From positions 5,094,195 through 5,158,194 of the forward strand of contig NC_057718.1 of the NCBI RefSeq assembly GCF_004010195.1: 64,000 bases of DNA. The letters run 5' to 3'. A program made the translations under genes and the position numbers. The notes under the pieces are model-generated. The model saw only the letters and a program-made list of their open reading frames with translations. It was not told the DNA's origin and ran no database searches. The DNA is from Chiloscyllium plagiosum (Eukaryota). Each line of letters begins with the position of its first letter. Position 1 is the first letter of the stretch. Positions 53,601-56,600 of the stretch are shown piece by piece.

Positions 53601-56600
53601 TTGCCAGCATTTGGCCCATATCACTCTAAACTCTTCCGATTCGTGTACACATACAGATGCCTTTTAAATGCTGTAATTGTACCAGTCTCCACCACTTCCT
53701 CCAGTAGCTCATTCTGAACACGCCCCACCCTCTACTTGAGACGGTTACCCCGTAGGTCCCTTTTATATCTTTCCCCTCTCACCCTAAACCTATGTCCTTT
53801 TGTTTTGGACTCCCCACACAGGGAAAAGACCTTGGCTATTTACCCTATCCATGCCCCTCATGATTTTATAAATCTCTATAAGATGACCCCTCAGCCTCTG
53901 ACACTCCAGATTATATACGTCCTTTTATATAAGGACCAGAAATGTTCACAGTATTCCAGGTGTGGTCTGACTAGTGCCTCATACAGACCTTGATAATTTG
54001 ATACTCTGTCTCTTTGAAATAAAGGCCAAAATTCCATTTGCTGTCCCTATTACCTGCTGAAGTTGGATGTGATTCATGCACAGGGATCCATAAATCCATG
54101 CAGTCTGTAGCTTTCTACAGTCTTTCCCCATTTAAATAGTATTCAGCTCCTCTNNNNNNNNNNNNNNNNNNNNNNNNNNNNNNNNNNNNNNNNNNNNNNN
54201 NNNNNNNNNNNNNNNNNNNNNNNNNNNNNNNNNNNNNNNNNNNNNNNNNNNNNNNNNNNNNNNNNNNNNNNNNNNNNNNNNNNNNNNNNNNNNNNNNNNN
54301 NNNNNNNNNNNNNNNNNNNNNNNNNNNNNNNNNNNNNNNNNNNNNNNNNNNNNNNNNNNNNNNNNNNNNNNNNNNNNNNNNNNNNNNNNNNNNNNNNNNN
54401 NNNNNNNNNNNNNNNNNNNNNNNNNNNNNNNNNNNNNNNNNNNNNNNNNNNNNNNNNNNNNNNNNNNNNNNNNNNNNNNNNNNNNNNNNNNNNNNNNNNN
54501 NNNNNNNNNNNNNNNNNNNNNNNNNNNNNNNNNNNNNNNNNNNNNNNNNNNNNNNNNNNNNNNNNNNNNNNNNNNNNNNNNNNNNNNNNNNNNNNNNNNN
54601 NNNNNNNNNNNNNNNNNNNNNNNNNNNNNNNNNNNNNNNNNNNNNNNNNNNNNTCCAATGGAGGACCATCCATACTTCATCCACCCAGGTGGGGCTGTGA
54701 CATGACACCCTCACCAGGTAATGGACAGTGCCTGGTCCTGACCCCCGGACACAGGGAAAGCTGCTTCCTGGTAGGTCTAACCGGACACGTCTGGGGTGGG
54801 GAGTGATTCTCGCCTCCCTCTGACTGTTAACTGGATAACAACCCCTGATTATTATTATTATTATTATTATTCTTGAATGATTGCCAATCCCTGGAGAAAG
54901 AGGAACAGAGAGATGGAGAATGAGAGGCGCACGTGGATGTATAATGTGACCAGGGGTTGTGTTTGTTTCGCTCCTCCTCCTCCTCTCTCTCTCTCTCTCC
55001 TTCTCTCTCTCTCTCTGTGTGTTCATCTCTGTCCCCGCCCCTCTCTTCCGGAACAGTGAGCTCCAGCCCTATATAAAGCCGGTGGAGGCTCTGGCATTGA
55101 ATCACTGCAAGCTGACAGTGGAATAGTTCTGACTACTGCAAGCAATTGGAAGTCGGGGAGATATCAGCAGCTCTGTGTATTTCGCCCCAGAGAACAGGAG
55201 AAGGAATTATTTCTTGTAGATTGTAAAATGGTGCACTATTCCATTGTCATTGTATTCGGCAGGAGGCTGAGCCAAAGACCTTCACTGGAAGAACTGGAAC
55301 AGAGGAACATCTTAAGATGTAAGTAACATTCAGTCTGCTCTCTCTCTCTTGCGCTTCTTTAGACTGTGAGAATGGAATGGGTAATTGTGATGGGGCTGTG
55401 CAAACATCAGCCATCCGCACCCCCCCCCCCCCCCCCCCCCGAGAACTGCAGCGGAATTTCTGCACCAGATTGTCTGGATCTGTATTTGAATAGATGCCCA
55501 AATGGGATTTAGAGTTCCAGTATGAAGGGGATGTATGAAGAGAATATGTATACATAATGCCGGGGGAACCCTGTGGATTCAAACTTTAAAAAGAATGTCC
55601 ATTGCAAAACCTAGAGCTTCCCAGGGAGAGAATGATGGGCAGAGTGGAGCAGAAGGATTTGAGCAGCAGAAAATGATTGGAGTGAATGCAATCTGGGATC
55701 CTGACAGCTGATGTTTCAAAAATGCCTTTTTATTTTGCATCTCCCTTGATAACGAGCAAGATGCCCCAGTCTGCCGCAGCGTGTGTGTGTGTGTGCAGGA
55801 GGGGGAAGAATGAGCGGTGGTGGGGGGGAAATCCGCCCCCGCATTCCCCCCGCCCCCGGGTGCGTGGGAGCGACCAGGAGGGAAAGCCCACCTCCCACAC
55901 GTCAGCCAGGCTTCCCTCTGACGTCAGGCGCCAGCTGATGCAAAATGTAACTGTTTCAATGCTGGGGGCATTTCACTTCCGGCTTCACTTTGTGCCCCCT
56001 TTCACCACCCGCCCAGCTACTCCGGGAGGGCTATGATGCAGCCTCTCTAAGTACAACTCCCCATCCTCCTCCTATCCCAACCGCCCATTTTCACTGTGGT
56101 TTTGGTTAATTTCGGTTTTTAACAGGGGCACCAGTTCAGATGGATAGATGCTCAATCCACATCAGTTCTGATGCCTCTCAGCACACTGCAGGGAAGCAAT
56201 AGCAGTTCACCTTGTAGACAACCATTGAAGACCTGCAAAGGGCTTTGGTTCTGTGAATGATCATTTCCCTTGAAGCAGAGAAGCTTAAATTCTGAAGGAT
56301 GTAAAGGAGAAGCTATTTATTTTCATTGGCAGGGAACAGATGACTTGGATTTAAGATAATCAGCAATGAACCAGAAGAGAGATGAGAAGTTTTTATTCTT
56401 TACACTTTTTTTTAATAATCTGGAATGAGCTAGCTGTGGGTCAGTACAAAGCGTTTTAATAATTGAATTCAAAACAGGATTGAATAAATTGAAGAGGTGG
56501 GAGGAACAAGCAGGAGGAGTGAGACCACTTGAATAGCTGTTCAGGAAAATCTATATACCTGTACACACAATGGACTGACTGACCACTGTGCTGTAACAGT

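Follow-up and report, generated by a model that had tools for sequence, protein, structure and literature searches.

A probable short, internally initiated form of PHACTR2 in the bamboo shark Chiloscyllium plagiosum

The 64,000-nucleotide stretch of the Chiloscyllium plagiosum genome analysed here (NC_057718.1, positions 5,094,195 to 5,158,194; hereafter the window, with position 1 as its first letter) contains most of a PHACTR2-type gene on its + strand, where all features of the gene described below lie. The bamboo-shark PHACTR2 protein P0020, of 583 amino acids (aa), served as the reference for exon matching over its residues 98-579. Exons matching it by tblastn are found at about 20044, 27359, 32729 and 40023, and at 42862-43018, 55263-55318, 58972-59109 and 60497-60573, with 92-100% identity across the window exons and 96-100% in the coding pieces from 55263 on, where tblastn aligns. 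The exon of 62 nucleotides (nt) at 57811-57872 and the last coding piece of 16 nt at 61396-61411 have no tblastn match to P0020, and were placed by splice sites and frame. Among 30 scored candidates, 26 proteins match the exon at 55263, most of them named phosphatase and actin regulator 2 and belonging to sharks and rays, and the window gene is, judged from this similarity, the PHACTR2 orthologue. The subject of this report is the 12-kb intron that precedes the exon at 55263-55318. An intronic promoter there probably starts a second, short PHACTR2 transcript, which would encode a 127-aa protein consisting largely of the last two actin-binding RPEL motifs and the phosphatase-binding tail.

In the long isoforms, the exon at 42862-43018, which lies outside the short form, normally splices to 55263. 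The acceptor (ttcggcag/G at 55262/55263) and the donor (AGAT/gtaagt at 55318/55319) delimit a shared exon that carries one RPEL motif and is joined to 57811. Upstream of the acceptor, at a distance of 35 nt, is the ATG at 55228-55230, in the context aaaATGg with A at -3 and G at +4. It is the sole ATG within 55090-55262, the nearest in-frame stop upstream of it is a TGA at 55057, and its 12-residue reading continues in frame into the exon. The coding 5' extension of the exon (55228-55262) comprises this ATG and 11 further codons, the last completed by the G at 55263. The downstream pieces are the exon for the basic/acidic linker (57811-57872, supported by contig joints as well as by splice sites and frame), an exon in which the last RPEL motif is followed by the beginning of the PP1-binding string (58972-59109, by homology), an exon for 25 residues and part of an Arg codon (60497-60573, by homology and frame) and the last coding piece, which reads (R)FHRP with a stop at 61409-61411. 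The five pieces sum to 91+62+138+77+16 = 384 nt including the stop, or 127 aa. Both the strong-context ATG that opens into the RPEL exon and the length of 384 nt and 127 aa had been put forward in an initial annotation of the window, and both are confirmed from the letters.

The short open reading frame (ORF) contains two RPxxxEL motifs, at 55276 and 58981. Lost with P0020 residues 1-468 are the N-terminus (MGQ...) and two RPELs, namely the N-terminal one and the first of the C-terminal cluster. The initial annotation called the retained motifs RPEL3 and RPEL4, counting the N-terminal RPEL as number 1. The retention of the two C-terminal RPELs stands, and only the numbering differs from that of the Phactr1 structural paper, in whose relevant passages the last C-terminal motif is called RPEL3 (PMC7599070), so that the two motifs here would be RPEL2 and RPEL3. 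The short hydrophobic N-terminus is likewise real as a reading, and is partly a by-product of translating the sequence upstream of a splice acceptor.

Evidence of transcription comes from contigs of four elasmobranch runs (X1, X4, X5 and X6, with four organism labels), which were aligned to 54654-59150; a run of Ns ends at 54653, and there is thus no continuous reading upstream of 54654. The alignment skipped 54837-54881, 54968-55030 and 55408-55448 as repeats, and stretches without contig cover, such as 55404-56303 in X6, were not counted as evidence. A GT..AG joint from 55318 to 57811 is present in all four runs and one from 57872 to 58972 in three of the four, and the runs therefore contain spliced PHACTR2 complementary DNA (cDNA). 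An unbroken contig that passes from the intron into the exon is also present in each run: 55114-55291 in X6 (192 letters, mean depth 469), 55032-55289 in X4 (mean depth 15.9), 55122-55272 in X1 (151 letters, 0 differences, mean depth 2.5) and 54821-55291 in X5 (mean depth 8.8). Sequence upstream of 55263 other than that spliced from 43018, the absence of which the initial annotation had named, together with a lack of conservation of the TATA box and ATG in related species, as refuting its proposal, is therefore found in every run, and exon-continuous contigs cover 55114-55262.

The extension contig is deeper than other intronic contigs in three of the four runs. For X6, its depth is about 17-fold that of the downstream-intron contigs (25-30) and compares with 535-661 for contigs of exons or exon joints and with 2.8 for a contig at 54654-54832. 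In X4 the remaining intron bins have depths of 1-2 or 0, against 15.9, and in X1 intron cover elsewhere is confined to a repeat at 56904-57203. Three of the contigs end at 55289-55291, beyond the acceptor by about one word of 31 letters, which is where a side path that joins the canonical exon path would be expected to stop. At its other end the X6 contig has 14 letters past its aligned start at 55114, which places its free end near 55100. We take these depths to mean that transcription of the extension far exceeds that of the intron in three of the four runs, and the predicted start agrees with the end of one contig. The initial annotation had named as a check continuous RNA across the acceptor, with capped 5' ends near 55096-55104; the continuity is borne out by all four runs and the X6 end falls within the predicted interval, but it is a contig end only, as contigs cannot reveal caps, and the X4 and X5 contigs reach further upstream. 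The putative 5' untranslated region would then occupy 55100-55227, with an approximate start, on the X6, X1 and X4 contigs, and contains no ATG.

Two further features of the contig cover lie in the intron downstream of the exon. A repeat fragment at 57054-57203 has summed contig depths of about 1,400 to 21,000 in all four runs, with many loose ends on both sides, and looks like an expressed transposon family outside PHACTR2. In another place, 55498-55651, a contig of X4 with a depth of 5.1 omits 152 nt bounded by CA..GC, for which a deletion between species is likelier than a splice.

Upstream of the putative start is a series of promoter-like motifs on the + strand. These are a GC-box-like CCCCGCCCC (55033-55041), which is covered by X4 and X5 contigs with no listed difference; a palindromic motif, CTTCCGGAA (55045-55053), which we take to be ETS/STAT-like and which has no listed difference in X4 or X5; a TATA box, TATATAAAG (55070-55078), with no listed difference in the contigs of organism B (the X4 label) or organism C; and an initiator-like TCACT (55102-55106). 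The letters that the initial annotation had assigned to the GC box, CTTCCGGAA, TATATAAAG, TCACT and aaaATGg are all in their places. With the TATA and initiator forms that we assume as consensus, TATATAAA fits TATAWAWR, and the A of TCACT (55104) is 34 nt after its first T, close to the X6 contig end near 55100. However, the motifs alone prove nothing, because matches to the TATA box are common: TATAWAWR has 27 matches in the window on both strands, versus 8.6 expected in shuffles. Their weight comes from the RNA contigs and from conservation.

The promoter-like stretch does not appear to be borrowed from a mobile element. Within 54960-55262, only the CT microsatellite part matches elsewhere in the 3.56-gigabase assembly, and the rest is single copy. 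A transposon or long terminal repeat promoter is ruled out because 55033-55262 is single copy and the repeat search places only the CT-rich family D2 there, and a TATA-type promoter of a known small RNA gene is ruled out because no Rfam family matches in the window at gathering scores. Two microsatellites, of ATT type and CT type (54837-54881 and 54968-55030), are found directly 5' of the GC box, and a poly-C tract (55408-55448) just past the exon. Runs of Ns, either gaps in the assembly or withheld letters, occupy 45506-46251, 54154-54653 and 60708-60820, of which the second is exactly 500 long and ends about 380 nt upstream of the promoter-like stretch.

The listed differences in organism B are unevenly distributed, with 1 in 72 positions of 55032-55103, 15 in 124 of 55104-55227, 1 in 35 of the extension ORF and 0 in 27 of the exon part. 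Promoter and leader differ on these listed differences with a Fisher p of 0.007, which rises to 0.075 if 2 unlisted substitutions fall in the promoter. The sole difference in the extension ORF, A>G at 55254, converts GTA to GTG and is synonymous. As to the conservation of the TATA box and the ATG, which the initial annotation had proposed to check in other chondrichthyans, neither has a listed difference in X4, X5 or X6, with the qualification that 198 differences and 43 indels fall outside the listing and that a position is listed for one of the 19 gap letters in the X4 contig.

Two further PHACTR loci were found in the same assembly with two protein queries, in addition to the window gene (contigs C9, C27 and C29 in all). 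The locus on C29 (L016, 3299-3391) is PHACTR1 by its best-matching named proteins. It contains ATGGTGCAC exactly 35 nt before the same acceptor, identical to the window, and reads MVHRMILIFSHR; two Ile residues shared by the two readings are encoded by ATT in one locus and by ATC in the other. In this PHACTR1 locus, TATAAAT stands 57 nt upstream of the conserved ATG, and another ATG in the same frame is found at 3320, at a distance of 71 nt from the acceptor; because of this TATAAAT and these in-frame ATGs a PHACTR1 short isoform is likely in this shark as well. Beyond CATGGTGCAC, no resemblance was detected between the promoter region of the PHACTR1 paralog and that of the window gene. A PHACTR3-like locus was not found in this genome with the two queries, and may be absent from the assembly or have been missed.

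Similar N-termini occur among database proteins. MVQ followed by 9 residues directly before RLSQRP is present in 17 of 255 stored proteins. Thirteen of these are PHACTR1-type short proteins (three of the four with a source name are from mammals), and the other four are PHACTR3-type, namely P0255, from a cyprinid fish, and three more, a label that relies on likeness to P0242 (source name phosphatase and actin regulator 3). The paralog types were assigned by a crude regular expression that typed some PHACTR4-named proteins as PHACTR2-like, and source names were preferred where present. A profile of the 7 distinct MVQ 12-mers places the window peptide at rank 2 among the 70,800 12-mers in the window that contain no stop, and the C29 peptide at rank 1 among 10,839. 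When the Met and the junction Arg are left out, however, they rank only 355 among 77,731 and 10 among 11,936, and the similarity in the interior of the window peptide appears modest.

The short PHACTR models in UniRef and Logan-derived sets (98-209 aa) begin, as the shark form would, in the intron directly before RLSQRP. They are automatic models, and none is from a shark or ray. MVQ at codon -12 is seen in 15 of the 53 short database rows, in PHACTR1- and PHACTR3-type models. The PHACTR2-type models (P0156, P0172 and P0178 from fish, P0184 and P0222 from birds) have other extensions and no Met at -12, although P0222 still reads ..QK...L..SHR in register, and the PHACTR4-type models have other, Phe-rich extensions.

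Taken together, RNA continuity, depth above the intron in three of the four runs, the conservation in organism B and the ATG shared at -35 with the PHACTR1 paralog support the internally initiated short isoform that was first proposed from the letters. A number of observations weigh against it, and they are given here together with the alternative explanations. The alternative that survives best, although it is unlikely, is that transcription does start in the intron but yields an RNA from which no stable protein is made, a regulatory transcript or a by-product, with the conserved letters serving the splicing of the exon. Conservation beside an acceptor often reflects splicing alone, and in organism B the extension ORF has no significant advantage over the leader in conservation (p 0.2). 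To this may be added the rank of 355 among 77,731 for the interior of the peptide, and the fact that two fish and one bird PHACTR2-type short models (P0156, P0172 and P0222) are without a Met at -12. Against the short isoform in general, the corresponding place in the PHACTR4-like locus on C27 contains stops in frame and is devoid of an ATG. An elasmobranch PHACTR2 protein with this N-terminus was not found among the 26 matches, a weak negative given the 30 candidates scored, nor in the 24 examined of 120 listed. Finally, in the passages of the two human studies that bear on this point, endogenous short PHACTR1 protein was undetected (PMC4917897, PMC5994109).

An untranslated RNA would not, however, be expected to retain an ATG at the very same -35 offset, within an identical ATGGTGCAC, in two paralogous loci of a single genome, or to keep Met-Val-Gln/His at this codon in PHACTR1- and PHACTR3-type proteins from mammals, a bird and fish. 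That the shared Ile residues use different codons, that the leader contains no upstream ATG and that the start context is strong also argue for translation of the 127-aa frame.

It is considerably less probable that the contigs over 55032-55262 represent unspliced precursor mRNA or carried-over genomic DNA, with promoter-like motifs that arose by chance. None of the runs is recorded as RNA (the label 'RNA?' is a guess), and their RNA nature rests on the splice joints. Much of this intron is covered in X5 and X6 (25 and 23 of 30 bins, respectively), the X5 intron-exon contig is at the intron background of its run (5-12) and, like that of X4, extends upstream of the TATA box (to 54821 and 55032) instead of beginning at the proposed start, and TATA matches are as frequent in the window as stated above. 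Contig depth is also a single mean per contig, which cannot rank the parts of a gene, and the start near 55100 depends on one contig whose last 14 letters are unaligned. Against this explanation stand the X6 depth of 469, compared with 25-30 in downstream introns and 2.8 in the contig upstream of 54832, the X4 depth of 15.9 compared with 1-2, and the confinement of X1 intron cover elsewhere to one repeat; nor would chance account for the recurrence of this arrangement in the PHACTR1 genes of shark and human. Least probable of all is an alternative upstream 3' splice site that lengthens the exon in long transcripts to give a frame-shifted, decay-prone form: the AGs at 55110-55111 and 55117-55118 are close to the X6 alignment start at 55114, but no pyrimidine tract precedes them, an exon from 55112 read from the upstream exon has TGA as its second codon, a spliced side path should, given 31-letter words, carry about 30 letters of another exon and not 14, the X4 contig is colinear through 55110-55118 up to 55032, and a decay-prone form would hardly attain a depth near that of the exon contigs.

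Elsewhere in the window, hairpin-like inverted repeats are present at 28908-29094, 48072-48277 and 48719-48911, with arms of 85-93 nt that are 94-96% complementary. At least two of the three belong to a family with at least 7 copies in the window (D1, D3, D4, D8), which is probably a short non-autonomous transposon.

If the short isoform is expressed as proposed, the core promoter in the 12-kb intron (GC box, ETS/STAT-like motif and TATA box at 55070) would start transcription near 55100, and the transcript would read through the normal acceptor, so that the exon is extended at its 5' end and then spliced to the last four exons. The sole AUG of the leader, at 55228, would open the 127-aa frame with 12 new residues, followed by two RPELs, the basic linker and the PP1-binding tail in full. 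The part that the short form retains aligns to the Phactr1 RPEL domain bound to G-actin (4b1z) and to Phactr1/PP1 complexes (6zee, 6zef, 6zej). In the relevant passages of the study by Fedoryshchak et al. (PMC7599070), Phactr1 516-580 forms the crystallised PP1 complex, and G-actin and PP1 binding exclude each other because the RVxF motif overlaps the last RPEL. By analogy, we infer that the 127-aa product may form a PP1 holoenzyme with which actin competes at the last RPEL. Such a mini-Phactr would be without the N-terminal region and its RPEL, and without the RPEL that comes first in the cluster, and because of these losses its localisation and the strength of its inhibition by actin should differ from those of the long form, with actin control probably weakened.

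The shared position of the start codon across paralogs suggests that the short form is old and selected. More tentatively, both initiation within the intron and the Met-Val-(Gln/His) that precedes the RPEL exon by 12 codons may predate the PHACTR duplications and have been kept in PHACTR1, PHACTR3 and the shark PHACTR2. If this is true, mini-Phactr proteins of 127-145 aa (two RPELs and the PP1-binding tail) would represent a PP1 cofactor of ancient origin that is translated, is less strongly controlled by actin and has another location, rather than an oddity of human macrophages. The same arrangement and start codon position in two shark paralogs and in PHACTR3-type proteins of other vertebrates argue that selection has kept the short form for several hundred million years. 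The short PHACTR form offers a defined peptide and a promoter for testing, and a natural protein with two RPELs and the PP1 tail would be a probe of how the number of RPELs sets the actin sensitivity of Phactr/PP1.

No PHACTR2 short isoform or internal promoter was found in the literature by title and abstract start (a search that did not cover subscription journals), and the closest known system is the short transcript of the human paralog PHACTR1. In the relevant passages of two human studies, this transcript has its last four exons in common with the longer transcripts and begins with a 5'-extended form of the same exon, with the start codon in the extension (PMC4917897, PMC5994109); those passages make no statement on a TATA box. 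One human study linked the transcript to a coronary-disease risk variant. The initial annotation had cited this precedent simply as a short C-terminal transcript, and the likeness proves to extend to the architecture. The human product, which is described as a protein of 144 aa in monocytes, macrophages and B cells, has two RPELs and the PP1-binding end and no N-terminal part, as the shark form would. The two differ in that the precedent is PHACTR1 and the shark gene PHACTR2, and in that the human start codon is 83 nt upstream of the acceptor, with a 28-residue extension, as opposed to 35 nt and 12 residues in the shark. The 28-residue extension is that of the ape protein P0032 before RLSQRP, and the first six residues of P0032 are those encoded by the forward primer, as published; at codon -12, P0032 and the shark reading have in common a Met followed by Val. 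The shark form shares several features of the human one, namely a 5'-extended exon before the last four exons (in contigs from 55114, 55122, 55032 and 54821), an in-frame ATG in the extension, and a predicted product limited to two RPELs and the PP1-binding C-terminus, and its identification as the shark PHACTR2 counterpart of the known PHACTR1 short isoform is supported.

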